A DNA stretch of 64,000 bases from Mytilus trossulus (GCF_036588685.1 NW_026963302.1:2108001-2172000), one strand, 5' to 3'; positions 14,201-54,184 are shown, counted from the stretch's first letter. A program made the numbers and translations. The notes: generated from the letters alone by a model not told the origin.

Positions 14201-14982
14201 TTTGGTCTTTGTTGAAGGCCGTATGATGCACTATAGTTTAATAAGGTTACTATAAATGACGCGGTTTAAAGCAACTATCGGTCACTGTACGGCCTATGAC
14301 CATGGGTAAAATCAATACCATATTGTCTGCTATAGCAGATCCCGTAATAACAAAATGTAAAACGTATCAAACGAAAAAACTAGTACTAGAAAAATAATCA
14401 ACGAAGAATAAATGTGACAGGCAGCAATAAACGACAACCACTGAATTACAGGCTCCCGGCCTAGGACAGAGGGGGGAGGTATAGATTGTGGCGAGGTAGA
14501 ACATGTGTGTATGCGCTAAATCCTTCCCGCTAGCTGAGACAGTTGTGAAACAGCACAACCTAAGGACTGTAAAAATCTGTTTGAAATTGCTTGCCTCATT
14601 ATACGATGTATAACAACAACTAACAAATAAATTCTTACATGTTACCTTTTTTGAAGCGTTATGTAATTGTATTTGAAATATATTTTCGTATTCGTAAGCC
14701 AGAAAATCTACAAGCCAGTTACCTTTTTCGTTAGCTTTTTACACAAAAAAATCGAATGACTTAATGTCAAACAAACAACTTCAATCAAGTTCTAACAATA
14801 TGCATGTAGAACAAGTACTCGGTACACATTTTAAAATAAAACGTCCTCAAAATGTGCAAAACGCAAGCTTTAAAGTAACCTATAAATTGGAAATATAAAA
14901 ATGTGACAAATTCAAGAGAGAAAACTAACTTTCTGGTACATGTATAATCTTATAAACCTTAAGAGAAAACAATTGTACCAGA

Positions 14983-15321
14983 CGACAACGGACTAAAGAC
15001 TCATGGACAGAGACAACGGACTAAAGACTCATGGAAATAAACAACAAACTAAAGACTCATGGAAAGAGACAACGAACTAAAGACTCAAGGAAAGAGACAA
15101 CGGACTAAAGACTCATGGAAAGAGACAACGAACTAAAGACTCATGGAAAGAGACAACGGACTAAAGACTCATGGAAAGAGACAACGGACTAAAGACTCAT
15201 GAAAGAGTCAACTAACTAAAGATTCATGGAAAAAGACAACGGACTAAAGACTCATGGAAAGAGGCAACGGACTAAAGACTCATGGAAAGAGACAACGAAC
15301 TTAAAACTCATGGAAAGAGAC
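14983..15321. repeat. 28-bp minisatellite, about 12 copies
   Basis: Unit agagacaacggactaaagactcatggaa repeated head-to-tail with no spacers. Confidence 0.95.
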
Positions 15322-15595
15322 AGATATGTATTTAAAGAAAGCGGCAATGTTAAATATATTTGCGACCGCTCTATTTCTTTGCAAATAACATTGGACAATT
15401 GAGTTACATCACAATATTATAAAAACACATAGTACAAATCAGTTGTTAAAAGGCCTTGACTCGTCAGATTTAATAATAACTTATATATTCAAAACAACCA
15501 ACAAAAAACAAAAAGTACCGATTTCAGAATACTAAAGCAGTAACGTATTATGAAGGGCAAGTTATTTTTTTATATTACAAAAAAAATAAAAAAAT

Positions 15596-23574: not shown

Positions 23575-24212
23575 CACACATTTACCAACTCACATACTCC
23601 ATCTTTGCCTTTTTCCTTCACATTCCCTATCCCCTTACCATATCACACACACACCAACACACCAACACACCTCACATACATACTCTCTCCTACACACATA
23701 CACATTCTACCCTCACATTCATACTCTGTCCTACACACACAATCTAACTGCCACACAGCTTCACTCTCACATACTCACTCATACTCTCTCTCTCCAAACA
23801 CTCACCTACATATACACTCTCAACCGCTAACATACACACACACTCTCACCCTACATACACCACACTCTTACCTACATACACCACACACACACTCTCATCT
23901 ACATACACCACACACACACTCTCACCTACATACACCCTACATACACCACACACACACTCTCACCTACATACACCACACACACACTCTCACCTACACACAC
24001 CACACACACACTCTCACCAACATACACCACACACACTCACTCTCACCCTACATACACCACACACTCGCACCTACATACACCACACACTCTCACCTGCCTA
24101 CATACACACTCTCACCCACCTACATATATACACACCTCTCACCCTACATACACCACACACTTTCACCTACATACACCACACACGCTCACCTACATACACC
24201 ACACACTCTCTC
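23575..24212. repeat. CA-rich low-complexity minisatellite (~23-27-bp unit ctcacctacatacaccacacacaca)
   Basis: Visible degenerate tandem array; accounts for the His/Thr-rich ORF 23479-24249. Confidence 0.9.
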
Positions 24213-27631: not shown

Positions 27632-28218
27632 AAAGGAGTAGGTCCGGTAAGGGGCGATTTTGGCCTCAGTTTTCATGTTCATTTAACGAAATATTTTTTT
27701 ACATTTTTTAAACACGTAAGTGTCTATTTCTATTGATTTAATTAGTTTATGTGACGGTTTTTAACTGAGTAAGTCATTAAAAACGCTCCTTTTCAAGCTT
27801 GAATATGAAAAATGTATCAAATATGCAAAAAACCGTCATTTTTCAGATGGTGTTTGTCAAAAACGAAAGTGGCCGCATCCGTGTTCATCCTCAACCTTTA
27901 TATATATTATGTATTATTAGGAAATACAACTTACGTTTTAATATTATGAATGAACACGAATGCGGCCACTTTCATTTAAGACGGAAACCGTCTAAAATTT
28001 AAGTAAAATGCTAAAATTCTGAAGATTTTAGAAATTTAGCATGACTAAATGATGCTAGACTACCCGATATATGTGCATTGTGTTGTCAAAAACAGCCCAT
28101 ATTTATGTAGCAGAATCATTCTACTTTCCAACAAATAGCTTAACGATTACATTTTCAAAATTTTGTAAAACTGCTATATTTTGGGGCCAAAAAGGGATCT
28201 TACTGAACCTACTCCTTT
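27632..28218. mobile_element. MITE with ~35-bp imperfect TIRs and an internal inverted repeat
   Basis: aaaggagtaggtccggtaag..ttttggcc vs ggccaaaaa..cttactgaacctactccttt; internal IR gaaagtggccgcatccgtgttcat (~27865) / atgaacacgaatgcggccactttc (~27950). TSD unclear. Confidence 0.75.
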
Positions 28219-29886: not shown

Positions 29887-30407
29887 TGTAAATAAGAATT
29901 TGAATAAACACTAAATATTCTAAGCTAAGAGTAAAAAAAGTAGGAATAACGATGCGGTCCTACACTTTGCGTACTTGCATATCTGAAAATAAAATAAACA
30001 AAATGACCAATAATGTAAACTGGTATAAATAGCTTCAATGAAATGGGTTCTTTCTTTGTTTTTTAATGTTGTTTCTTGTCTATCGCTCAATATTCAAAAC
30101 AATGCATTAAAATCTTACTGAATCATTGATGCTTGTTATCTAACAGAATTTTTAGATAGCAAACATTTCTAAAAATGAGTTAGTTTACAGAACTTATAAA
30201 TAATTGTCCGGAAAATTCCCCCTTTAGACTTTCTTGTCGAAACAAAAAGAGAACACACACAAAAAATATCACAATAGACTGTACTTGATTCAAAATGTTT
30301 ACAAAAGTCATGTAAATGAATTAGTATCATGTCTAGACATTTCAATACAGTAAAGTATAATTGTCTGATGCCTGAATAGAACCAAAAAATAAAATCATCG
30401 GATTTGA

Positions 30408-30814
30408 ATCATGACAGATAAGTAAGAATTGTCGGACTATCATGACAGATAAGTAAGAACTGTCGGACTATCATGATAGATTAGTAAGAACTGTCGGACT
30501 ATCATGACAGATGAGTAAGAACTGTCGGACTATCATGACAGATAAGTAAGAACTGTCGGACTATCATGATAGATAAGTAAGAACTGTCGGACTATCATGA
30601 CAGATAAGTAAGAACTGTGAGACTTTCATGCCAGATAAGTAAGAACTGTCGGATTATCATGACAGATAAGTAAGAACTGTCGGACTATCATGACAGATAA
30701 GTAAGAACTGTCGGACTATCATGACAGGTAAGAAAGAACTGTCGGACTATCATGACAGATAAGTAAGAACTGTCGGACTATCATGACAGATAAGTAAGAA
30801 TTGTCGGACTATCA
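30408..30814. repeat. 31-bp minisatellite, about 13 copies
   Basis: Unit atcatgacagataagtaagaactgtcggact in tandem, high identity. Confidence 0.95.
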
Positions 30815-33800
30815 TTAGCACAGACATTCAACCCTGTGTCTTACTCTCTTGGTATGGTTCGCGTCGATAGTCCAATATTGTTTAGTTGTGTCATAGTGCT
30901 GTTAGATCTTTGATATAATGGAATTGATACTGTATTCAATGTCTTTTTTTCTTTTTTTCCCTCAGTTTTGGTCATCCCCTTATTGTAAATTAGTCTTTGA
31001 CCTGGTCAAACAATGTAACTTACCTTCGCACTTTGTACCCTTTCCAGTCTTTGTTTTAAAACTACGTTTGTCTATATTTTGTGTTTTGATTTAAAGTGTC
31101 GATTTCTTTCAATCGTATTTATGTTAACAAAGAAATTACGACTAAATAACACAAAACATTAAACGGTATTTGAACATATTGATGTTCTATTGTTCTATTG
31201 ATTATTATCGATACAAGATTGTCACCTTTCAAGTTTGTTATTGAAATATGTATTTCATGTATGACGTACAAAAACATTTCTGTACATTTTCTTTTCTGCG
31301 TATTTTTTATATTGTTATATACTATTTTTCAACTTACAGTAAAAAAAAGGGAAAGTAAAATAAAGTAAAACCCCAGTTAAAAGGACATTAGTAAACTTCT
31401 GAATTGAAATCGATATGGAACCTAAAAGTTTAGCAAAATTCGTCTATGAACGAAAGTTGAATGCTTGTTAATTACTTCAGTAATACTGACTATTGAACTA
31501 AGGAATTATGACACAAATGTATGTCTATTTCATATTGATTGGTTAAACAAGTCCACAGAAGACGGCTACCATACAACTTTCTTCCTAATTCTTAATCTTC
31601 CCCTTGTTATTTTTAACTTGCAGGAGCATTTGAAAATATTGGTTGTAACAATAGTTCTAACTGGGAATGATTGCTTTATGTTCAGTGGCAAATATTTCAT
31701 ACTCATTCAGAACGAAAAGTCCAATAGAAAGCCGATAGTGCAAAGTCGGTTCAGATGGACATATATATAGGATAGGAATTTCGACTGTAACTGTAAAATG
31801 AGCTAGGGCATGTTGAATATGGACAGACATTTTGTATTGCAACATGTCGTATAAGGAACGTCGCACTTCCATGTGCAGACGTGATACCCTCTTTGAAATT
31901 TGCATCGGTATCTATAGGTTGGACGTGACTGTGTATTTATACATCCGAGAGATGATAATACTTAATGTATCCCTCTGATATGCTCAAAGAAAGATAACTC
32001 TATACATTATAGACTACAATTGTTCTTGAAACAATTGCAACATCATAATATAAAAAGATATATCAATGTGAACATACATGTATCAACCAAAATCCAAATG
32101 GAGTTAATGTAAGAAGCTACATGTCACAGCATGACCTTCAACAATGAGTAAAACCAAATACAGTTGCTAATTATAATTTAGGCATTTCACCCCATAAACA
32201 CATATTAGTAGCCATATTTAAAATGCATATTTATCACAAACATATATATGCACCTGTATAATTCCCCATACATAGTATTAAATTTACCTGTAAAATTTCA
32301 CTTTTGATCTTAGGTCAATAGGGGATTGATACACAAAGTAAATAAATAAACAATGGTGTTCACGTCTTTTAAAGTTGTTTGAACTCAATCTGGGTATCTT
32401 CATTTTCATTTATCTAGATTCGTCCATTACTGGCATTATATTTGTATCTTTATAAAGAATACATAATGATTGAATGAAATGATCATCATCGACCGATAAA
32501 AATAATCGTCAAGATACTACTAGTAGGCTTATAGTTTAGAATGACAGATGCATGTTTCAGAACTATTTGACGATATTCGTCGCACAGTTTATTCGCTTTA
32601 TTTACCTGAATTTCTCTGCGAACCCCAAGACCCCCTGCCCCTGGGATCCTACACTGGGATCAGATTCTGTTGATTTGAAAAGTCTATTAAGGATCATATA
32701 TTGCCTTACATAGTAGCTACGTTATCAGGAATCAGTATTACAAAACTTTACTTGTCAGCAAAACGTAGAATGCGGTTGTAATATTAAGAATTTAACCTTA
32801 CCTAGCTTTACAATTGGGTTTTTTCACCGCTTCTGGGGTACCTATATCCGGTGGTGATGCTACACTGTGGTTTCATATCAAGTACGAAGATTGAAGATAA
32901 TTGAAACCTTGTATTCCAACTGAAAACTTGTGCTAAATCTGCGGTAAAAAAAAATCCCGACAGGGGCGTAACTGTTTGGGTTTGCAGTGTGGTGAGCATA
33001 TATTTGTGTGTAACTCATTCTCCACAGCCTTATTGGATGGCTTTAGAAACAGCACATGCAATGTCCGTTAACTCCTTCATATACACAGTTTACAATCTAT
33101 GATCGTTCGAACGTGGTAACGGCGTAATTTTCCAAATGGAACTCCGTTGACAAGAGTAGTTGGTAATATGACTACATCATGCAGAAGGAAAATAGGTACA
33201 TTTAAAAATAATATTCTTCAATAATTTGGGTTAAATGAATCACAACAAGAAAAGACAGAACTAAAATATAAAAATATCGAGAACAGACACAAAACAAACT
33301 CTTAACACACAACCAAAAACAAAATGTCATAAACTTCAATATTTATCTTTAAAAGAAAGTTGTTCTAAATTATGTCTGATTCCTTTAGATACATCGTTTT
33401 TTACTCCTGGCAAGTTTACTTTCCGACAAATAGAAATAAGGAGATTGGTATGATTGACAATGAGAGAACTCTCCATCCAAGTCACAATGTGTGAAAAGTA
33501 AACACTTATACATGTATGTCAAAGTATGTTCTTCAATACGGCGCATTGGCTCACACCGAACAGAAAGCTATAACGGACCTCAATTGAGTAATTTTTAACC
33601 ATTCAACAGGAAAACAAACTGTCTAATTTATTATTATTTATAAAAAAAAAAAAGAAAAAAAGAAACACATATGAAACACATACAAAAAACCATAACAACT
33701 GATTGTAGTGATCTGTCCCTGTTCTGGTTGAAGACAGGGGCAAACCAATACAGCGGGTTTTAACGGTTAAACAGGCGCCAACCTCCCCCTAATCTGAAAC

Positions 33801-34957: not shown

Positions 34958-37920
34958 TTATTAATTAACTGGAGCTTATTTGACTAAATACGAGTAAAAC
35001 TGCCAAATCGATAATTTTGTCCTATAAGGCCAATACGGATTTTTCCGTATTGGCCCGGGTTTAGCAAGCCCAATATTAGCATATTCGATTATCTCTAGAC
35101 TAATCGGTTGAAATCCCGATAACTCTAGAGAACTACGGCTAGTGTCGTCTGACAGGAGAAAATGACAACAAAACGATGGAGCAATAGCTCTATACAAAAT
35201 ATAGATGATGCGATGGATGCGTTAGTTGAAGACTATTTTCACTACGACGATTTATCTAATAGGGAGGCAGAGTACATCAAGAGAAATCTCGCGGATGTCA
35301 ATGGGGAAGGAAATTTGATTCTGGAAGAAGTTGATTCAGCGAATTTCAACTTCCCAAATGAAATTCTGCAGGACATTGAAAATGCACAGAATCATGAGAT
35401 TGACGAATCAGACAAAGAAAATAGCTCGAGTAGCAAGAGGTTTCGCTCTGTCACTGATGAAGACACTGACTCTTTTCTAGCTTTAAGTGTTAACAAGAAC
35501 ACAAAAACTAAAACAAAGAGTGACTTGAAAGTGATGCTGGATTTTTTCATATCTGTTGGAGAAATGCGTGATTCAGTGGAAATACCTGCCAAAGACTTAG
35601 ACAGTCTGTTATCAAGATTTTTTCTTGGAGTCCTGAAGAAAAATGGTGACGAATATGAGCCTGACTCTTTATCCTCTATGTTCAACAGCTTGGATAGACA
35701 TTTGAAGGACTCAAAAAGTAGTATAAGGTACGATTATTTTCATGTAGATTATTTGATATCTGTGAGACATGTAACTCCCTTGTCTTGATATAGCATGATA
35801 GCCTTTGCATTATTCTGTCAAGCATTATGACTCGAATATTCAGTGCCAATATTTTAATTTTAGCCTTGTGTCATTTTTTTGGGTAAAAACTATATATATC
35901 ATCTGGGTCAATGTGGTTTTGATGAACTTAAGCTTGTGTACAATGAATATTCCTTGGTTTCTCTTTGCTATAAGTATAAAACATGTACATACAAAAATTA
36001 CATGTCAGATATTATGCATATCTTTTCTTTAATGTTTCAGTATTAAAAAGGATCCTGAGTTCAACCACACAAGACGGGTATTAGAAGCGAAGCGAAAGGC
36101 ATTAAAGTCATTGGGCAAGGGCAGTAAGCCAAACAGAGCTGAACCTTTGACGACTGAGGAAATCCAAATCTTGAGGGAGAAAGGCGTTATTGGAACACGT
36201 AAGTTTTAAAAAAATGTTGTATTCCAGCGTGTCAGTCAGTAACTTTTAATTACACATTTTTCTAACCTTGTGGCAAACAAATTATTTTATTTCCTTGTCG
36301 CCCTCTATCCATCCCTGATTATTAAATGGTTGTTCTAATAAAAAATGTTTAAAATACACATAAGGTCTTGAACAATGAGAGTGTCTCCAGAGGTCTTTTG
36401 CATTTTGATACAGTATTTGTCCTTTAAATACTATTTTAAGTTGGATATTTACATTAAGATACATGTATTTTAGTTAAGTTCTTTTTTTTTCTTTTTCCAG
36501 AAAACCCTGATGCATTACTGAATGCTGTGTTTTTAAATAATGCAACATACTTTGGTCTACGAGGTCGACAAGACCATGTTAACATGACATGGGGAGATGT
36601 CAAGTTAAAAGCTACATCTGATGGAAAGGAGTATTTGGAATTTAATGGTGAGATTATGTTATGATTTCCATCATTTAAATAGTTGATATTTTAAATCTTT
36701 TAGAAATCACAGAATATATACTTCTGTGGATAATGGATGTACATGTACAACAGTCCTGACAAAAGTTGGTAATTTGTGCTTTTAAGGATATTAACCATTG
36801 TTTTATATTTATCAAAACAAATCTTATTTACTATGCAATACATGTTTTTTGTTATATAAAAGTGAAAGTTTTGTACAGACAGGAAGGATAATTCTTCTTT
36901 AAATATTGACATAAGCATACTTTTTTCAGAAAGAAGCACCAAAACCCGTAGTGGAGCAAAAAGCAGGGATTTCCGGGATATTACGCCAAAGATTTTCGGG
37001 GAAGGAGGAAGTAATTGCCCTATTCATGTTTACAAGGAATACAAACGGCATAGACCTCAAGACACATTAACTGATGAACATAGATTTTATTTGAGGCCTT
37101 TAGATAATAAACATGAGGAAATATGGTACACTCGCTAAACCATAGGCAAAGATAAATTAGGTAAAATGGTAAAAAATATGGCAGAAAAAGGAGATCTTCA
37201 AGGAAGAAAGGTTAATCATTCGGGACGTAAAACTTTTGCTACCACACTACTTCAAAATGGTAGACCTGCCAATGAAGTTGCTCAATTAGGAGGCTGGAAA
37301 GGCATTAGTACCTTAACTCATTATTCAGTACCGTCTATTGAACAACAGCAACAAGCTTCTCACACAATATCTAAGGTCATGTTGCCGAACTCAGATTTAC
37401 AGACGACATCAGATTCAGAGGAACCTTGTGAACTTTCAAACTCAAATACATTAGTTCATAATAATTTAAATGCAAATGTATCAAATACAAATAATCAAAC
37501 TGCTAACAAACATGACAACCCAATGGCCATGTTTGCAGGTGCAACTATAACAGGTGGTGTTTTCAATATTAACATATACTCAGGGGAAAGAAAGAATACT
37601 ATAAACTGCAGCCAAGAGCTTTAATCTGAAAACTAGATAAAAACATGTTTTTTACTTGTTGTGTTTATTTACTGTTGATTATTTAATAAAATTGTTACTA
37701 TCTTATTGTTTTGATTAAAATCCTCAATTTTCATTGATACATATTCAAATCACTACTATTGAAGTCCTGAATGTCAGATTTTCACACTATTTTCAATTTT
37801 CATATTGGCCCGGCTAGAGTTCATATTGGACTGGTTAATTAATAAAGGTATCATTGCGTAACAATTTTCATATTGGCTTAGTTATAGGTCCGAGGGTACC
37901 ATATTGGCCTGAGGCGAAGC
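34958..37920 (+). mobile_element. Crypton-type tyrosine-recombinase element, copy 1 (nonsense mutation; terminal hairpin inverted and truncated)
   Basis: 34958-37891 matches 37959-40892; begins TTATTAATTAAC; ends in half of the terminal hairpin. Confidence 0.88.
35162..37624 (+). pseudogene. Crypton tyrosine recombinase (DUF3504-like) with premature TAA in exon 4
   Basis: Exons 35162-35727, 36041-36198, 36501-36647, 36930-37624 with GT..AG introns; TAA at 37136-37138 where copy 2 has CAA; predicts a 359-aa product. Confidence 0.88.
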
Positions 37921-38162
37921 TTCCTCCTTCCCCGAAAATTATTGACATAAGCATACTTTTATTAATTAACTGGAGCTTATTTGACTAAATACGAGTAAAA
38001 CTGCCAAATCGATAATTTTGTCCTATAAGGCCAATACGGATTTTTCCGTATTGGCCCGGGTTTAGCAAGCCCAATATTAGCATATTCGATTATCTCTAGA
38101 CTAATCGGTTGAAATCCCGATAACTCTAGAGAACTACGGCTAGTGTCGTCTGACAGGAGAAA

Positions 38163-40625
38163 ATGACAACAAAACGATGGAGCAATAGCTCTATACAAAA
38201 TATAGATGATGCGATGGATGCGTTAGTTGAAGACTATTTTCACTACGACGATTTATCTAATAGGGAGGCAGAGTACATCAAGAGAAATCTCGCGGATGTC
38301 AATGGGGAAGGAAATTTGATTCTGGAAGAAGTTGATTCAGCGAATTTCAACTTCCCAAATGAAATTCTGCAGGACATTGAAAATGCACAGAATCATGAGA
38401 TTGACGAATCAGACAAAGAAAATAGCTCGAGTAGCAAGAGGTTTCGCTCTGTCACTGATGAAGACACTGACTCTTTTCTAGCTTTAAGTGTTAACAAGAA
38501 CACAAAAACTAAAACAAAGAGTGACTTGAAAGTGATGCTGGATTTTTTCATATCTGTTGGAGAAATGCGTGATTCAGTGGAAATACCTGCCAAAGACTTA
38601 GACAGTCTGTTATCAAGATTTTTTCTTGGAGTCCTGAAGAAAAATGGTGACGAATATGAGCCTGACTCTTTATCCTCTATGTTCAACAGCTTGGATAGAC
38701 ATTTGAAGGACTCAAAAAGTAGTATAAGGTACGATTATTTTCATGTAGATTATTTGATATCTGTGAGACATGTAACTCCCTTGTCTTGATATAGCATGAT
38801 AGCCTTTGCATTATTCTGTCAAGCATTATGACTCGAATATTCAGTGCCAATATTTTAATTTTAGCCTTGTGTCATTTTTTTGGGTAAAAACTATATATAT
38901 CATCTGGGTCAATGTGGTTTTGATGAACTTAAGCTTGTGTACAATGAATATTCCTTGGTTTCTCTTTGCTATAAGTATAAAACATGTACATACAAAAATT
39001 ACATGTCAGATATTATGCATATCTTTTCTTTAATGTTTCAGTATTAAAAAGGATCCTGAGTTCAACCACACAAGACGGGTATTAGAAGCGAAGCGAAAGG
39101 CATTAAAGTCATTGGGCAAGGGCAGTAAGCCAAACAGAGCTGAACCTTTGACGACTGAGGAAATCCAAATCTTGAGGGAGAAAGGCGTTATTGGAACACG
39201 TAAGTTTTAAAAAAATGTTGTATTCCAGCGTGTCAGTCAGTAACTTTTAATTACACATTTTTCTAACCTTGTGGCAAACAAATTATTTTATTTCCTTGTC
39301 GCCCTCTATCCATCCCTGATTATTAAATGGTTGTTCTAATAAAAAATGTTTAAAATACACATAAGGTCTTGAACAATGAGAGTGTCTCCAGAGGTCTTTT
39401 GCATTTTGATACAGTATTTGTCCTTTAAATACTATTTTAAGTTGGATATTTACATTAAGATACATGTATTTTAGTTAAGTTCTTTTTTTTTCTTTTTCCA
39501 GAAAACCCTGATGCATTACTGAATGCTGTGTTTTTAAATAATGCAACATACTTTGGTCTACGAGGTCGACAAGACCATGTTAACATGACATGGGGAGATG
39601 TCAAGTTAAAAGCTACATCTGATGGAAAGGAGTATTTGGAATTTAATGGTGAGATTATGTTATGATTTCCATCATTTAAATAGTTGATATTTTAAATCTT
39701 TTAGAAATCACAGAATATATACTTCTGTGGATAATGGATGTACATGTACAACAGTCCTGACAAAAGTTGGTAATTTGTGCTTTTAAGGATATTAACCATT
39801 GTTTTATATTTATCAAAACAAATCTTATTTACTATGCAATACATGTTTTTTGTTATATAAAAGTGAAAGTTTTGTACAGACAGGAAGGATAATTCTTCTT
39901 TAAATATTGACATAAGCATACTTTTTTCAGAAAGAAGCACCAAAACCCGTAGTGGAGCAAAAAGCAGGGATTTCCGGGATATTACGCCAAAGATTTTCGG
40001 GGAAGGAGGAAGTAATTGCCCTATTCATGTTTACAAGGAATACAAACGGCATAGACCTCAAGACACATTAACTGATGAACATAGATTTTATTTGAGGCCT
40101 TTAGATAATAAACATGAGGAAATATGGTACACTCGCCAAACCATAGGCAAAGATAAATTAGGTAAAATGGTAAAAAATATGGCAGAAAAAGGAGATCTTC
40201 AAGGAAGAAAGGTTAATCATTCGGGACGTAAAACTTTTGCTACCACACTACTTCAAAATGGTAGACCTGCCAATGAAGTTGCTCAATTAGGAGGCTGGAA
40301 AGGCATTAGTACCTTAACTCATTATTCAGTACCGTCTATTGAACAACAGCAACAAGCTTCTCACACAATATCTAAGGTCATGTTGCCGAACTCAGATTTA
40401 CAGACGACATCAGATTCAGAGGAACCTTGTGAACTTTCAAACTCAAATACATTAGTTCATAATAATTTAAATGCAAATGTATCAAATACAAATAATCAAA
40501 CTGCTAACAAACATGACAACCCAATGGCCATGTTTGCAGGTGCAACTATAACAGGTGGTGTTTTCAATATTAACATATACTCAGGGGAAAGAAAGAATAC
40601 TATAAACTGCAGCCAAGAGCTTTAA
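38163..40625 (+). CDS. Crypton tyrosine recombinase, 521 aa, four exons
   Basis: Exons 38163-38728, 39042-39199, 39502-39648, 39931-40625 join in frame (1566 nt). Motifs KKNGDEYEPDSL, LEAKRKALKSLGKGSKPNRA, FGLR262GRQDH, STK295TRSG, CPIHVYKEY, NH387SGR390KT, GGW413K, TLTHY422. Confidence 0.92.
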
Positions 40626-40847
40626 TCTGAAAACTAGATAAAAACATGTTTTTTACTTGTTGTGTTTATTTACTGTTGATTATTTAATAAAATTGTTACT
40701 ATCTTATTGTTTTGATTAAAATCCTCAATTTTCATTGATACATATTCAAATCACTACTATTGAAGTCCTGAATGTCAGATTTTCACACTATTTTCAATTT
40801 TCATATTGGCCCGGCTAGAGTTCATATTGGACTGGTTAATTAATAAA

Positions 40848-40989
40848 GGTATCATTGCGTAACAATTTTCATATTGGCTTAGTTATAGGTCCTCGGGCAG
40901 CCATATTGGCCTTCGGCTTCGCCTCAGGCCAATATGGTACCCTCGGACCTATAACTAAGCCAATATGAAAATTGTTACGCAATAATACC
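40848..40989. repeat. 142-bp imperfect palindrome (terminal hairpin) of the Crypton element
   Basis: 45-bp outer stem 40848-40892/40945-40989 (1 mismatch), asymmetric bubble, 12-bp inner stem 40901-40912/40926-40937, tip TC-GGC-TTC-GCC-TC. Confidence 0.97.
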
Positions 40990-41969
40990 ATATTAATGAT
41001 TGATTTACGGTTAGTTACATAACTCCAGTCAAAACAAGTTGAACAATATTTTTTGATGCAGATGTTCATTGATGCATGAGATGTGCATAGATGTATAAGA
41101 TGTGCAGACAGCTGTGCAGGTGTAAAATGATTTTTTAACTTTAACTTTGAATAAGGCGCGGAAGATTAATTTTATCAAATTTGTTACTGTATACAATATT
41201 TTGCCATTTTTAAACTATCGCCTTAAACTCAAGTGCAACTGTTCTTCTGGTCAATATTATATTTGATAAAGTATCGCGTATCAGTGTAAAATTTTACCTT
41301 GAACTGATATGGCAGTGTTATCTATTACTTTTTACAAAACATTATTTGACAAGGTGAATGACATACTTAGTTAAACAGTTATGATGACTGCTGGCGAAAT
41401 ATAGAACACATAATTATAGTGCATTTCTAGAGAAGAATACTCAGTTTGGATAACATCACAAAATTGTAAATACGTAAGAAAACTTTATTAATTCTAATAT
41501 ACGCTTGTTTAACCCTATTAAACATGTGAATGGGTGGACGTGAAGTAAATAAGCTTTAAACTTTAGCATGGGAACTAACAAAATGGAAGGATGCATGTGT
41601 CCGACTAGACACACAGTATCGTTATGTTGATTAATATATTATAATGCGCACACGTTTTTTTTTTTGCCATGTGCTTTTATTATCTGTTGTGTTTGAAGGA
41701 CAAGTGGTTGTCAAAACCGTTAAAGTTGCAGCTATTTAATGCAATAATAATATTTTTGACTTTTTATGTGTGTGCAAAACAAATACCCTTTAAAAACAAA
41801 CGAAATTTCCATTGTCATCTGTATGCTAATTTACAGAGAGTAACTCATACAATATAGAACTTAGAATAGGAATTTTACATAATAATTATGAAACAAGGCA
41901 TGTGAACTGATTGTCGGCGTATATATTATTTTACGTCTATTTTAAAACAGTCAGGTTTTGGAAGTTGCA

Positions 41970-45748: not shown

Positions 45749-46726
45749 TAGTTGGATCGGTCTATAGTATTGTCTTTAATTTGGTAGTTGTTGTAATCTG
45801 TTGTACTGTCTAATATTATATGTATCACTGTCATCCTTATTGCGTATTATTTTGGATCATAAAATTCTGTTGAGGTACATCTCAGGATTGATTGATTGGT
45901 TGTTGTCTGTTTTACACTAAATGTCCAATATTTTAGTCATGTCCAAAACGAGAGCAAATACAACAAAACAGCTAATAAGTACATGTAGGTACTGCAAGTC
46001 AGTCAACATGGAGAGGGAGGAAGTAATTTCTTGAATACATGCATATGCAATTCCTCAATTCACATGTTCTTGATATGCTTCATGTATCTGCTCTCACTTC
46101 AAAATAAAATTCATCAACTTTAAGGATTGCCTAAAATAGAACTAAGAGACCCTTATGTTATGAATTATTGTATTTCATTATGCAAAAAAAACCCACCCTC
46201 CTTTCTGAACCCCCGACCCCGACTCTCTTTAGTCAAACTCTACACCTCTGGAATGTGTTATTTTAGTGATTATTTTAGCCTTTAAACACAGGCACTTGTC
46301 GCAGAAAAAAAATCCTATATATATATGCCTGTGTCTTTAAATCAAGCAATAAAGGCGCCATGATAAATCGTTTTTTCTAAAAATAAAATAATAAATTTTG
46401 AGTTGTATTAGTATAAAATATAAGAATGTTCAGTACCGTTTTATTGCTATTCATATATATTAAATCAAAAGACGTGGTATGAAGGCCAATGAGTAAACTC
46501 TCTACGAGGGGCCAAGTTTGTATCACGTTTGTTTGGAGGGAGTGCAAGATTGTATAAGTGCATGTAAAACAGTTCTATAAAATGTGTTATACTGGCTTTA
46601 AAATATATTACAAACGTTACGGTTTAAACTAGATAGACATTTTTCGGAATTACTGCTAATTAAGCTATTAAATAGAGTTTAGACTTCATGTTTATATATG
46701 TTTGTTTCTCTTTCACAGCTGGTATT

Positions 46727-49700
46727 ATGACAGATCCTAAATCCAGGCGATCATTGGGAAGATGGCGTTTAGCAGCCATCATCTTGGCGATTGTATCATT
46801 AGTACTATTTATTTGTCTTATAGCAATTCTTGTGACAACTCACACTAGGAAAAAGAAAATAACTACCTGTGGTAGTAAAGAAAAAGGACAGTATGGTCAT
46901 ATTGATCTTAAGGAATCAGATAACCCATCTGTGTTCCATCATTTAACTTCAAAAGAAATAGAAGGTTTGATGACGTATTTATATTCTCAGAAAACGCTCA
47001 ACTTAGTTAAGGCAGCAGACATGAAAGTCAATACAAGCTACGTCTTTTTAAGTGAATTATTTTTGCCAAGCAAAAGTTCTGTACTGGATTATCTAGACAA
47101 AAAGGGAACTCAGCCACCACGAGAAGCACGTGTTGTTATGTTACGAGGAGACAAACAAACACCAGATATTGAAGAAATTATAGTTGGTCCGTTACCGAAT
47201 CCAACCAAACACAGACCGAATCCTAACAGAAAAAAATCCATTCCATTTATATACCGTCCTGTTACCGGACCAGAACACGTTGGGTCAATAGAAATGGCTA
47301 CAGTGCAAGTTGACCAAGTACTTGGAACAATGTTCGAAGATATTTACGACGGAAAACTATTTAATTGTAATAGCAAATGCTTAATGATTCGGTACATAAC
47401 ACCGGTGTCTTCTGTGCAGTCCGGAGAGAAAAGACGTAAAACATGGTATTGGCTGTCACAGTCTGCGGAGTACTTCATTCTACACCCTCTAGATTTTTCT
47501 GTTTTGATAGACTTGGATGGACCAGACTATACAATCGAACAAGTTTGGTTTAATGGAAAACTGTATAAAACGCTGACAGATGTTTTAGATTACTATGAAG
47601 CAAATAAGGGGTCGATCTTAAAGGTTAAATTTCCAGATGTTAACAGAGATCTCTTCTCGACAATGAACCAACGTGGTACACCACCAATTAGTCCTCCTTT
47701 AAGAAATCCAGTACAAGTCTCACCTGATGGAAAGAGATATAATGTTAAGGATCGACATGTTGAATATATGTCTTGGCAATTTGATTTCGGGATGTCACCA
47801 ATAAGAGGCCCACAGCTGTTTGATTTAAGGTTTAAGAACGAAAGGATTGCGTATGAATTGAGTTTACAAGAACTTTCTGTATTCTATGCGGGATACAAAC
47901 CGATGCAAGCTTTAGCTAATTATTTAGATGGTGTTGGTTTAATAGGAATACAAGCAAAAGGACTTGTCCCTGGGGTCGATTGTCCACAAGACGCCACTTA
48001 TTTTAGTTCTACATTTCAAGTGGAGTCAGATGGTCCATTCTCATTTGAAAATGCTTTTTGTCTTTTTGAATACAACATGGGTATGCCTTTACGTAGACAT
48101 CATTCTTATTCGTTTTCTTATGGCAGGTTTTACGAAGGGATGGAATCAACAGTGTTGATCTTACGAACAATTGCAGTTATTATTAATTATGATTACGTAA
48201 TAGATTTTATGTTTTATCCGAACGGAGCTATGCAGGTCAAGGTTGTTTCTACTGGTTACGTACTTGGCACTTTCTATACGGACAATGAAAGTAAATACAG
48301 CTTCAAACTTCACGAGAATTTTGCAGCTAACATACACCAGCATTTGTTCAATTTCAAAGTAGATTTAGACATTCAAGGAACTTCAAACCGATTTGCAACA
48401 GCTAACATTGAAACTGAAAGTATACGGAACAAGTTTTCGAAAGATTCCAATGCAAGGTTAATACAACATAAATTTTCGACTTCTCTCAAAAGAACAGAAA
48501 AAGATGCTGCATACAAATTTGATTTTGAAACTCCAAAATATTTACTCGTATACAAAGAAGATGATAAATCAAGAAACGCGTATCGAAAGAGTAAAAGTTA
48601 TCGAATACTCAATAATGGAATGTCTAAACTAATTCTCCCAGAAGGAAAAGGAAACGAACCAAGTATAAGTTGGGCCAGAAATCAAGTTGCTATAACAAAA
48701 TACAAGGATTCGGAGCCGACGAGTAGTTCTTTGTATTCAATTCTAGATGCTGAAGACCCAATCGTACATTTTCAGAATTTTATTGATGATAATGAACCAA
48801 TAGTGGACGAGGTAAGTTGTATATGACGTATTCAACATTTAATTATAAAAACTAAACGATAATCTTGTAGAAATTAGCCCATCAACACTCCTTTGTTGAC
48901 ATGAAATATAATGATATGGTCATAATTATAAATTAACTGATTACAAAACTTAGAATGTTTGAAAACAGAGGCTTTTCTACCTCATGTGTAGAGTACCTTA
49001 GGTGTATTTGGCAACACTTTTTTTACGAATTTGCAGTCCTCAAACTCTTCAACTTCGTACTTTATTTGGCCTTTAAATTTGTTTTGATTCAAGCGTCACT
49101 GATGAATCTTTTGTGCACGAAACGCGGGTCAAGCTCATATACATAATTTCAATCCTAGTGTTTATGATGAGTTTATTTAAGAGGTGTAAAATTATGCATA
49201 TTTTATCTTTGAGTAAATGTCGGTGATATAGACCATACAAACATATATATTCAGAGTGTTTACATTCTATAAACACGATAAATGCAAGATTTTTGAACTC
49301 ACATTTAGGTATTTACTAAGTTATTTGTTTTGCTTCCAGGACGTACTATATAGTTTTGTAACTTGTGTGCCTTAGTCCTGTTTTGTTGTTGTAAAATTCT
49401 TAATGATATAAAAAAAAAGAAAAGATGCACCAACAACTAAATCGATGCACGCAACTTCTAGAATGGCATTCATTATGTATGATTGATGTCAAAACTTTAG
49501 AAATCAAAGAAAATTGCATTTAATTTTTCATATCACTATATATATATATTCATTCGAATTACAGATGAAATAGCACGACTATATGAGAGGTTTAATCTTT
49601 TGCTCAGAAAATTTAAGTTCATCATATCTTAAAGGATGATATATTGTGAACATAAAGTGCAATTAATTTTTCACAAAACATAAATGATCATACACACTGT

Positions 49701-50184
49701 TGTATCATTTCAAAAAAGCAAGTTGCATTCCATAAACTCTGAAAACACTGCGGATAGTCTGATACTGTTGCATTGATATATTCTTTGGAGAAAAACATCA
49801 CAGATTACAGAAAGAAAATATGCATTCATTTCTTATATAATTTGCAGATTATATTTATTTTTTTAGGATTTGGTAGCATGGGTCACAATGGGTATTCACC
49901 ATATTCCACACACTGAAGACTTGCCTGTTACACCTACTCCAGGGATGGAGTTAAGCTTTTACCTATTACCATACAACTATTTCGATGAAGATCCAGCAAT
50001 TTCTTCCTTGAATGCAGTCCGTATTGAACCAAAAGATAAAACCAAACTGAAGACATCTATTAACATAAACCGTTATGGCGTCAAACAAAGTATGCAGTGT
50101 GTACCTGAAAAAAATAAATATGACGAGGAAATTACAGAAAATCCGTCATTAATAATTGACACTGAAGGAGGCACATTCTTGTAA
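46727..50184 (+). CDS. Copper/TPQ amine oxidase, type II membrane-anchored (AOC-like), paralog A, 800 aa
   Basis: Exons 46727-48811 and 49867-50184 (gag|gtaagt..ttttag|gat, phase 0); N-terminal TM helix; catalytic base NYLD; TPQ motif NYDY; Cu ligands HQH and HIPH; PLRRH, DLVAWVT. Confidence 0.95.
49093..49135 (+). ncRNA. Degenerate minimal type-I hammerhead ribozyme motif in an intronic repeat
   Basis: gcgtca-CTGATGA-atcttttgtgcac-GAAAC-gcgg-GTC: conserved core boxes in order, but stems II and III are mismatched. Confidence 0.45.
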
Positions 50185-51222
50185 ATTTATAAGTAATAGA
50201 AAAACAAGATTCACGAATCAAACCGTCTGACCAGTAAAAAAAATATTGTACTGTCATATATTATGACAATATGTGTGTACATTTACTTGACAAATACTGC
50301 AATTATGTATGAATTTACTTAACAGCTAATATGCATTTTATACTATTTTTTAATTCGTGACGTATATAAATTGTATGCTTGATTCCATGCCATAAGAGTG
50401 TATATTTGTGTGTGTGTATGTCATTAAATGTTCATTACTGCTCCTTTAAAAAGCAAACGCATTATTTCATATTTTCATTAAACACAATTTGTGCATTGGA
50501 CTCTGTCAATTTTAATAACTACTTTTGGTGCCGGAATAACAAGTTTTGTTCACTCGGTATCCCTTAGATTTTGGGAGATTTGGCTAGCCATAAAACTAGG
50601 CTTAACCAACCATTTTTTTTTTTAGAATGAGCTGTGATCATGTCGGGAATGTGGAAGTCCGTCTCTATGTATTTTGGCGTTTGTTTTTGTTGCAGTTCAG
50701 TGTTTCTATTGTTCCGTTGTGTTCTACTTAAAGTTGATGCGTTTCCATCGTGTTTGGTTGATTTGCAATCCGGATTTGTTTTCGCTTTATCGATTTATGA
50801 CTATTTATCAGCGGTATATTTTTTTCTTTTTACGGGGACATCATTTATATTTGTATAAAAATCTTTGTTGTGAAGTTGTTCGAAAAGAAAATATAATGGT
50901 TTTCGCCTTCTCTACGTTACAGGTTTTTCGCCTTGTTTATGCCACTCTTCAAAATACGTTTTATATTTTACATGTATACAAATTGTTTATGTACCGAAAT
51001 TGTCTTTTTTTGTAGACTGCATGCTAATCCCTTGGTGATTATATATTTGGCTGTTGATGTGTATATACACTCAACATTTATATGTATTTATACATTTATA
51101 TGGCATGCAACTTCTCTGCAATTACCGATAAAGTTTGAAATAAACATACAACTAATTTTTCAGGAATATTAAGTATGAACAAAAGTTGGTAGTGTGAACA
51201 CTAATAACTTTACCCTGTGATC

Positions 51223-54184
51223 ATGGCAGATCCTAGCTTCAGGCAATCAGTCGGTGGACGGCGTTTACTCGTTTTACTCTTGCTACTGATAACAATATCA
51301 CTAGTAATTGCAATAATAGTGATAGTTATTAATACTCATAGCAATCGAAAGCATCAACCTACCTGTGGTCAAAAAGAGAAAGGACAGTATGGCCATATTG
51401 ATCTAACGGAATCCGACAATCCTTCTGTTTTTCGCGATTTGACTTCAAAAGAAATTGAAGCTTTAATGAATTATTTACATAGGCAACATAGTCTTAATAT
51501 AGTCAAAGCAGCGGACATGAAAGTAAATTCTAGTTATGTTTACTCCTGCGAAATGCATCTACCTAGCAAGAGCTCAGCCATTGATCATCTTGACAATAAT
51601 GCGAAAAAGCCTCCAAGGGAAGCGCATGTCATTATCTTCAGAGGAGATAAACAAAAACCAGACATTGAAGAAATAATCGTTGGTCCTTTACCCAATCCAA
51701 CTGGTCATAGACCTGTTCCACATAAAAGGAAGTCAATTCCTTTTATATATCGGCCCACGACCGGACCGGAACATATCGCGGTAATAGATATGCTAAATGT
51801 AAAAATCGACAACCTTCTTGGAACAATGCTTGAAGAGTTGTACGGGGGACGACTTTTAAATTGTGATAGTAAATGCTTAATCATTCGGTACATAACACCG
51901 GTAGCGTCTACACTGTCTGGGGAAAGAAGACGTAAAACATGGTATTGGGTGTCGCAATTTGCTGAATATTACATCCTACATCCTCTGGATTTTGCTGTAT
52001 TGGTAGACATGGACGTAACGAATAATACAATAGAAAACATATGGTTTAATGGACAACTTCATGACAATCTATTGGGTGTTTTAAATAATTACAGTGCAAA
52101 TAAGGGTTCTATTACTAAAATTCAGTTTCCAAATGTGAACACTGATAGTTTTTCTGCAGCGAAACAACGCGGCACACCACCAATTAGTCCTCCTTTAAGA
52201 AATCCAGTACAAGTCTCACCTGATGGAAAAAGATATAATGTGAACGATCGTCATGTTAATTATATGTCCTGGGAATTTGATTTCCGGATGTCGACAACAA
52301 AAGGTCCACAAATATATGATTTAAAATTCAAGAAAGAAAGGATAGCATATGAAATAGGCTTACAAGACATTGCCGTCTTTTATTCAGGATACAAACCCAT
52401 GCAAGCTATGGCTAATTATTTAGATAGTGTAGGGTTACTCGGATCCCGTGCACAAGGTTTAGTACCTGGTGTCGATTGTCCAAAGGACGCAACATTTGTA
52501 GGGACGACGTTGCTGGTGGAGTCCGATGGTCCTTTTTCGTATGAAAACGTATTCTGTCTGTTTGAATATAATACAGGCATGCCATTACGGAGACACCACT
52601 CCTACTCATTTAATTATGGTAGGTTTTATGAAGGAATGGAAACGACAGTATTGGTTTTGAGAACAATTATCGTTATTATCAACTATGACTATATTATCGA
52701 TTTCATATTGTATCCAAATGGTGCAGTGCAAGTAAAAGCCGTTTCCACTGGCTACGTATCAGGTACATTTTATACTAAAAATGAAACAAAATACAGTTTT
52801 GAACTTCATGAGAATTTGGCAGCTAACATACACCATCATATGTTTAGTTTTAAAGCCGATTTAGATATAAAAGGAAATGAAAATAGATTTGCGACTGTTG
52901 ACATTGAAACGGAAGATTTACCGAATAAATTTTCAAAAAACAAGGATTCAAGATTAATTCAACATAAATTTTCTTCAACTCTTAAGAAAACGGAGAAGGA
53001 AGCTTCGTATAAATTTGATTTTGAAACTCCAAAATATTTACTTCTTTACAAAGAAGATGACAAGACAAGGAAATTTTACAAAAAGAGTAAAAGTTATCGT
53101 ATACTGAACATGGGAATGTCGAAACAAATCCTACCAGAGGGCAAAGGTAACGAACCTAGTATAAGTTGGGCTAGATATCAAGTTGCAGTGACCAAATATA
53201 AAGACTCAGAACCCACCAGTAGTTCTATATACTCTATACTAGATGCTGAAGACCCAGTTGTACATTTTCAGAACTTTATTGATGATAATGAATCAGTTGT
53301 TGATGAGGTAAATGTATAAATAACCAATAAGTCATTAAAGATTTCTCAAGGTTCAAATTTTCATTGAAAAAAAGAAGATGAAAGAAACACTTGAACACTC
53401 GGCCGGGTCAAACTATTTCTATCAATGTCTGAACATGATATAACAAATACCAATTGTGTTTGGAACATCACTTTCAACCACAATCAACAATATAGAAGAT
53501 AACAAAAAGTAAGTACACAATGTGTCATGTTGTACAAACAAAATGAAAAATAAAAACACACTTTATAAGATTATGTACGGTGTCTGAAAGCAGACCTTGG
53601 CTTATGTATGTAACTTAAAGTTACTGATATGCAGTATCCGTCATACTCTAAAGTCGTTGGCTGTATTCCACAGTACATTTCAAACTGAAATGGCATCAAC
53701 AATACAGGAAGACAATGATTAACTTATGCAAACGATGCTTAAAATAAAACCATTTAAAACAAAAACAGACAAAAGAAACATTTTAAGTAAGCAAATTAAT
53801 GTATAATATAAAATTTAAAAAAAAGTGTTTATAGACTGAGATTTTTTATATTTAAAGGTGACTTTGTATCTTATATGTTTGTAGGATTTAGTAGCATGGA
53901 TCACTATGGGAGTTCAACATATTCCACACACTGAAGACTTGCCAATTACCACTACCCCGGGGATGGAAGTAAGCTTTTATCTATTACCATACAACTATTT
54001 TGATGAAGATCCAGCAATATCATCATTGAATGCTGTTCGTATAGAACCAACAAACAAGCTGAAGCATAAGACATCTATAAAAATAAACCGATATGGTGTT
54101 GGGCAAAATTTTGAATGTCTGCCAGAGGAAGACAAATACGATGAAGAAATTAAGAAAAATCCTTCTATAATCCTTGATGCTTGA
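51223..54184 (+). CDS. Copper/TPQ amine oxidase (AOC-like), paralog B, 794 aa
   Basis: Exons 51223-53307 and 53885-54184, same intron position as paralog A; TM anchor, NYLD, NYDY, HHH, HIPH motifs. Confidence 0.95.

Follow-up and report, generated by a model that had tools for sequence, protein, structure and literature searches.

A tandem duplication of a Crypton-type transposable element, 3,001 bp in length, was found in the analysed window, a 64,000-nucleotide stretch of Mytilus trossulus DNA. With a probability of roughly 55%, it arose when the long palindrome at the right end of the element triggered a break that the host repaired by template switching. The starting points are read directly from the sequence: two copies of the element, a reversed hairpin centre in copy 1, the interval holding the strand crossover, two donors for the patch between the copies, and an exact restart of copy 2. 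From these we infer the later steps.

Two copies of a Crypton-type element

Copy 1 extends over 34958-37920 and copy 2 over 37959-40997, both on the plus strand and offset by 3,001 positions. The left end of copy 1 is intact and its right end is cut at the hairpin loop, while copy 2 is complete. Over 34958-37891 the copies differ at one of 2,934 positions, T in copy 1 against C in copy 2 at 37136, turning CAA into a TAA stop. The 7-bp direct repeat TATTAAT is located at both outer ends of the dimer (34959-34965, plus strand, and 40991-40997) and is likely to be the recombination overlap of the original insertion. The right-flank contig of public run X1 begins matching at 40991, and the right ends of other copies vary at the TATTAAT bases. 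The flanks of the dimer are not duplicated. Between the copies neither a target motif nor an intact circle junction was detected, and 71 nt of the far arm of the hairpin are gone. A double-insertion dimer was rejected on these grounds: the right end of copy 1 lacks the 71 nt, the spacer is derived from the element and no target motif is present. A rolling-circle concatemer was also rejected, the circle junction being replaced and the hairpin orientations differing between the units.

The recombinase gene of copy 2 (38163-40625, plus strand; exons 38163-38728, 39042-39199, 39502-39648 and 39931-40625) is intact and encodes a DUF3504/tyrosine recombinase of 521 aa. The gene of copy 1 (35162-37624, plus strand; exons 35162-35727, 36041-36198, 36501-36647 and 36930-37624) is interrupted by the TAA at 37136-37138, leaving a product of 359 aa that lacks the H-x-x-R and Y motifs. 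Three GT..AG splice joints, i.e. those of all introns, were seen in runs X15 and X16. In a scan confined to the four exons, exon 4 matched PF12012 (8.7e-10) and PF00589 (1.3e-7), exon 3 matched PF12012 (2.2e-5) and exon 1 matched PF25561 (1.4e-5), and DUF3504/tyrosine recombinase was the only recognisable domain among them. Unlike domesticated DUF3504 genes, the predicted copy 2 protein keeps R262, K295, H387-x-x-R390, W413 and Y422, which we take to be the catalytic motif positions.

The corresponding protein cluster contains 25 members, all of the 15 listed carrying the name of a Mytilus species. Eight full-length members of 521 aa differ at 1-4 residues. A database protein of 359 aa is identical to the shortened product of copy 1; as it may derive from the same locus, it was given no weight as support. 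Another database member, P0016, displays Q360K at the same codon as the copy 1 stop (37136). Among the listed members covering residue 12 (38196), five from M. trossulus have Q, as does the window, and eight from M. edulis or M. galloprovincialis have K.

Seven distinct public runs were compared, the best word share among the 24 listed runs being 0.75. In run X1 the depth of the element was 521 against 40.5 for the right-flank contig, and this contig, matching from 40991, does not run on into the element; these observations point to a high copy number and to an allele at this locus that lacks the element. The flanks ahead of the common left end differ in 5/7 runs with a listed loose end there. 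The element is dispersed and multicopy, with sharp ends and varying flanks. Matching starts at 37957-37959 in all seven runs, and the same 12 left-end bases open three of the four metagenome relatives; therefore, copy 2 begins exactly at the left terminus of the family. Judged from its sequence, this is a young, spliced, multicopy element of the CryptonA type. Marine sediment and seawater metagenome runs (X8, X10-X12 and X14) contained about 0.7 of the element-end words, and these matches are probably mussel environmental DNA.

Both copies share eight differences from all of the runs that cover them. One of the eight is coding and synonymous; they are mostly non-coding (P 0.029) and are likely, from their positions in the sequence, to be variants of the lineage. 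Their use for dating the duplication after the insertion was dropped, since they are mostly non-coding. One copy difference in 2,934 positions together with eight shared variants is what a sister template would give.

A chimeric read, a template switch during amplification or a mis-scaffold at the palindrome could in principle imitate such a junction. Palindromes are hard to sequence, the copies are nearly identical and the patch between them was crossed by none of the pieces and joints listed for the seven runs, whose contigs show presence only. However, these runs differ from both window copies at the eight positions, so that they represent other lineages and not the source. Moreover, the overlaps of the patch pieces with their neighbours are 0-2 nt, which is not what graph misjoins produce, the flanks are single and copy 1 has a substitution of its own. 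An assembly or library artefact appears quite improbable. The patch was also absent from the three relatives with both ends located, and it is not a constant part of the family.

The end hairpin and its reversed centre

The right-end hairpin of copy 2 (40848-40989, plus strand) is complete and has the same orientation as in the relatives. It is an imperfect palindrome of 142 nt, with a predicted energy of about -64 to -66 kcal/mol, and includes a perfect stem of 39 bp. In copy 1 the centre of this hairpin is reversed (37892-37920, minus strand). This segment is the reverse complement of the far arm of copy 2 (40916-40944) and differs from the forward arm of copy 2 at 20 of 29 positions, a relation on which the first-pass annotation was silent. 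It ends in the GCGAAGC mini-hairpin at 37914-37920, and the stop of copy 1 at this point just past the loop, claimed earlier, was upheld at 1-2 nt beyond GAA. The outer mismatch at 37852 in copy 1 is unchanged from the near arm. One switch from the top to the bottom strand reproduces 37800-37920, and the 40 crossover positions that do so are all located in 37852-37891, the interval of the 39-bp perfect stem. The end of copy 1 reads as folded back, or capped by a hairpin, and it stops at the stable mini-hairpin GCGAAGC.

A self-complementary pattern catching both hairpin orientations gave 17 matches in metagenome contigs, of which 13 were dropped because BLAST did not match them to the element at E 0.01. 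The other four (L002, L005, L016 and L017) were non-coding relatives, and all of them read like copy 2. Assemblers can orient exact arms as short as theirs, which are 12-30 nt at the longest. Four of four in one orientation is a small sample, with a chance of 1 in 16 under an even mixture. On this comparison of sequences, the reversal in copy 1 looks local. By tblastn, the recombinase was encoded at none of the metagenome loci. The hairpin pattern had no match in viral contigs, and the pattern for the internal site described below had none in viral or prokaryote genome contigs.

Contigs that cross the stem displayed the reversed reading in runs X17, X15 and X18 and the copy-2 reading in X16; the X15 path carries eight other letters, i.e. 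it enters a sister subfamily. The assembly word size is 31 letters. Counts of hairpin orientation from the run contigs were rejected because the 39-bp perfect stem is longer than this word. The paths of these contigs are arbitrary, yet a natural mixture of both orientations could exist. Both orientations would be normal if the element replicated through hairpin-capped ends with hairpin transfer, and the dimer would then be a mis-resolved concatemer. Parvovirus-like flip-flop hairpin termini occur in both orientations at similar frequency. In copy 2, L016 and L017, the triloop on the reversed strand is of the GNA type and has tandem GA mismatches on either side, resembling the origin hairpins of single-strand phages, and three of the four stem-crossing contigs take the reversed reading. 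Against this, these contigs are not orientable and the X15 path belongs to the sister subfamily, whereas the four resolvable relatives are all in one orientation. In addition, hairpin replication yields head-to-head dimers, and the present one is head-to-tail. We therefore regard this origin as very improbable.

At the base of the palindrome, the 12-bp left terminus recurs as its reverse complement (37834-37845); therefore, the junction of the element's ends is mirrored inside the element. The mirror site extends over 37834-37851 on the minus strand.

Some smaller features were observed near the ends. CATATTGG boxes are repeated at 37801, 37822, 37869 and 37900 (region 37794-37907), and a second small hairpin is found near the left end (38029-38056 and 35028-35055). 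Features like the small left-end hairpin and the boxes are also present in L005 and L016. From their sequence and placement, the boxes and the small hairpin are possible candidates for recombinase binding sites.

The junction patch and the proposed route of repair

The insert between the copies is wholly templated. Patch piece 1 (37920-37939, minus strand) is the exact reverse complement of 36992-37011 in exon 4, and patch piece 2 (37940-37960, plus strand) is an exact forward copy of 36904-36924 at the end of intron 3. Both matches are maximal, and 2e-9 and 1.7e-8 matches, respectively, were expected by chance in one element on both strands. As each donor is present in both copies (39993-40012 and 39905-39925 in copy 2), the donor copy is not assignable. 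The C at 37920 is common to copy 1 and the TT at 37959-37960 to copy 2, and the net insert is therefore 38 nt (37921-37958). A gap of 67 nt separates the donors, and they are 909 and 1,016 nt from the junction, the distances to be considered under the proximity-to-break criterion for a TMEJ scar. The two snippets from inside the element, the TT overlap and the donors about 70 bp apart and about 1 kb away, all proposed in the first-pass annotation, are borne out by these results.

Exact microhomologies at the three joints are 1 nt (C), 0 nt and 2 nt (TT). Longer overlaps are imperfect and were recognized post hoc. At the middle joint AAA precedes donor 2, giving an AAAT overlap with one extra T, and at the last joint the final eight patch bases match the internal mirror site (37844-37851) at 7/8. 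A match to the copy-2 loop (GCTTC, 40916-40920), again noticed post hoc, was also seen for the three bases that follow GCGAAGC and would extend the first overlap to CTTC (24 of 1043 C-starts). Among 721 TT-ending 8-mers of the element, six reach 7/8, two of them being the donor and the site themselves. In an alignment anchored at the restart, the patch end scored 17 against the fold-back path, a value reached by 5/3000 and 9/1500 of a null of random two-piece patches, for a match that had been noticed post hoc. The scores were 5 against the circle junction (141/3000 of the null) and 4 against the genomic left flank (3000/3000). The idea that the whole patch had been selected to rebuild the stem was rejected, as the energy tests were not significant (258/1000 and 1120/3000 of the null). 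If the snap-back is real, the 3' end was paired with an internal site that serves as template for the initial 12 bases of the left terminus, and the exact restart would thus be explained without the recombinase.

In the palindrome-break reading that we prefer, the 142-nt palindrome would extrude into a cruciform, the base of which is cut diagonally; alternatively, a stalled nascent strand would switch strands within the 39-bp stem. Either start would join the top strand to the hairpin of the bottom strand, and the hairpin cap would be opened at, or trimmed back to, GCGAAGC. Artemis opens hairpins 2 nt past the tip. The free 3' end would then prime twice, first briefly some 0.9 kb back on its own strand, giving the inverted piece, and next 67 nt further on the opposite strand, giving the forward piece. 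This new end would snap back on the internal mirror site and use it as the template for the 12 bases of the left terminus. The 12-base homology would allow synthesis to restart at the left end of the element on the sister chromatid and to continue through its full length. The element recombinase is not needed for the duplication.

Comparable steps are described in passages of several papers. A cruciform cut at its base gives hairpin-capped ends that are opened by Artemis or MRX-Sae2 (PMC7999016), and a spacer may be inverted by intermolecular switching in the first arm (PMC8604942). The motif GCGNAGC withstands 3' exonuclease (PMC13037366). An end extended on the sister and joined by TMEJ results in tandem duplications, sometimes with templated inserts (PMC7368036). 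Polymerase theta extends stem-loops from two base pairs, slips by +1 in runs and creates new microhomology (PMC11292364).

The first-pass annotation had attributed the junction to a break at the hairpin tip patched by host repair. The sequence fits this in part; however, the strand that stops at the tip belongs to the hairpin of the opposite strand, and an earlier switch in the stem is needed. The templated pieces fit the signature also claimed, that of polymerase-theta end joining or microhomology-mediated template switching. Polymerase theta would be the likeliest enzyme to act in the priming and snap-back steps. However, TMEJ inserts are copied, in the passages drawn on, from the 'immediate vicinity' (PMC7368036), and the enzyme is not fixed because donors about 1 kb off lie beyond this. 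Such donors and microhomologies of 0-2 nt are compatible with polymerase theta and equally with template switching in a general sense.

The exact restart would also follow from a cut by the recombinase, and this counts against the host-repair reading. The recombinase might have acted on the sister or on an excised circle, cutting or releasing a left end to which host repair joined the fold-back right end through the patch. Copy 2 does start exactly at the terminus found in all seven runs and three of the four relatives, the family is young, multicopy and spliced, and the catalytic motifs are apparently intact in copy 2. However, the recombinase would be expected to act at the TATTAAT overlap, whereas the reversing crossover lies inside the stem; the circle junction is also a poorer match to the patch end than the internal mirror is. 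The 12-bp inverted repeat, moreover, accounts for the exact restart without any enzyme of the element. We consider a recombinase-freed end unlikely, though to be kept in mind, and the same holds for the earlier suggestion of an aborted transposition intermediate, which is possible but not required.

Going further, the junction could be a fossil of Crypton movement, in which the recombinase acted on the folded hairpin and an abortive reaction left a hairpin-capped end with a reversed centre that the host tied to the left terminus. The folded-end substrate would be akin to those of integrons or CTX phage, and the hairpin caps to those made by a telomere resolvase. This reading is rather doubtful, and we view in the same way its proposal that the base of the hairpin pairs the right and left termini with the internal mirror site.

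The match of the patch end to the mirror site can also be obtained in two steps. In the first, a fold-back through the whole near arm to the mirror site would there have switched, or been recombined, onto the left end, producing a dimer with a more perfect internal palindrome; this palindrome would later have broken. This route accounts for the same 7/8 match and for a GAAAAT anchor 13 nt upstream. In yeast, according to the passages drawn on, fold-back inversions are often stabilised by secondary homology- or microhomology-mediated rearrangements (PMC7467729). Nevertheless, it requires an extra event, and the unpatched intermediate was seen in none of the pieces listed for the seven runs, which are of other lineages. 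We hold the route as a whole to be improbable, and equally so its second event, a replacement of the far arm by the patch with ATAC-TTT as microhomology.

Relation to known rearrangements and other Cryptons

The junction shares with the tandem duplications with templated insertions produced by TMEJ, as covered in part of PMC7368036, the head-to-tail duplication in the kilobase range and the short templated pieces in both orientations with minimal microhomology. FoSTeS/MMBIR proceeds through repeated switches, with orientation changing, among templates no more than a few kb apart, and ends in copy gain. Here the switches run from plus to minus in the stem, to the minus strand of exon 4, to the plus strand of intron 3 and to the plus strand of the left end, within one 3-kb element. 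A series of switches with copy gain is a feature of FoSTeS/MMBIR rearrangements, and the scar shows it. In contrast to the duplications by TMEJ, FoSTeS or MMBIR, both breakpoints here are functional ends of a transposon, the donors are about 1 kb back and the first switch reverses a hairpin centre. Switching at a fork and cleavage of a cruciform give the same product sequence.

Palindrome breaks and fold-back inversions, in passages of PMC7999016, PMC7467729 and PMC8604942, likewise involve a long quasi-palindrome, a crossover in the perfect stem, a reversed centre, a stop at the loop and a secondary rearrangement. However, only 29 nt are inverted here, and the product is a direct and not a large inverted duplication. 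Transposon dimers formed by double insertion or rolling circle (McGurk and Barbash, 2018, PMC5932611) are, in the passages drawn on, also head-to-tail and of young active elements, and many of them have deleted ends; the present spacer differs in being copied from the element interior.

The single DUF3504/tyrosine recombinase gene with its catalytic motifs intact, the lack of classic terminal inverted repeats, the non-autonomous derivatives and the animal host are shared with CryptonA as portrayed in parts of Kojima and Jurka (2011, PMC3212892) and of the Glomhopper study (PMC13465315). The present element differs from described CryptonA in its 142-nt terminal hairpin and its internal mirror of the end junction. 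For animal Cryptons, passages of PMC3212892 report no terminal repeats, and for transposition they give only a proposed circular intermediate. Fungal and oomycete Cryptons have terminal direct repeats of 4-6 bp, compared with the 7-bp TATTAAT here, which is variable in other copies. Palindromes are not mentioned in the main text of PMC3212892, and neither hairpins nor palindromes in that of PMC13465315. In the literature searched, no hairpin-ended Cryptons, flipped Crypton hairpins or such dimers were found; Repbase and the PMC3212892 supplements, which hold the termini of 94 elements, may describe such ends.

At this one locus, the scar is most likely a further palindrome-triggered duplication by template switching, a rearrangement of a known class, readable base by base in a mollusc. 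It indicates that elements of this family can be reversed and duplicated through their own long end hairpin, which would be a fragile site. The design of the element end is of greater interest than the scar at a single locus. The family offers a lead for Crypton transposition, being intact, spliced and nearly identical across Mytilus species, with the hairpin and the junction mirror defined. If the fossil reading were true, Crypton transposition would pass through a hairpin intermediate that left its direct trace at this junction, and the family, being young and expressed, would lend itself to assays.

Several other features were observed beside the dimer. The right flank at 41001-41030 resembles, on the minus strand, the left end of the element (ACTGGAG...ACTAA; about 17/20 by eye), possibly reflecting a target preference or the remnant of an older related element. 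An imperfect inverted repeat with 75-nt arms and a 7-nt spacer (27841-27997) is unlike the Crypton hairpin. Dense short perfect hairpins were also seen in GC-rich metagenome contigs (L001 1955-2165, L003 345-555, L014 147-357, L015 1483-1693 and L011 1716-1926); the runs in L001, L003 and L014 are near-identical, and all five contigs are unrelated to the element. Elsewhere in the window, tandem arrays of 31-bp and 28-bp units and a CA-rich 27-bp repeat are located at 30316-30877, 14922-15350 and 23834-24212. Diverged direct repeats (68-78%) with a spacing of 4.0-4.5 kb extend over 46719-54173 and are possibly tandem genes.
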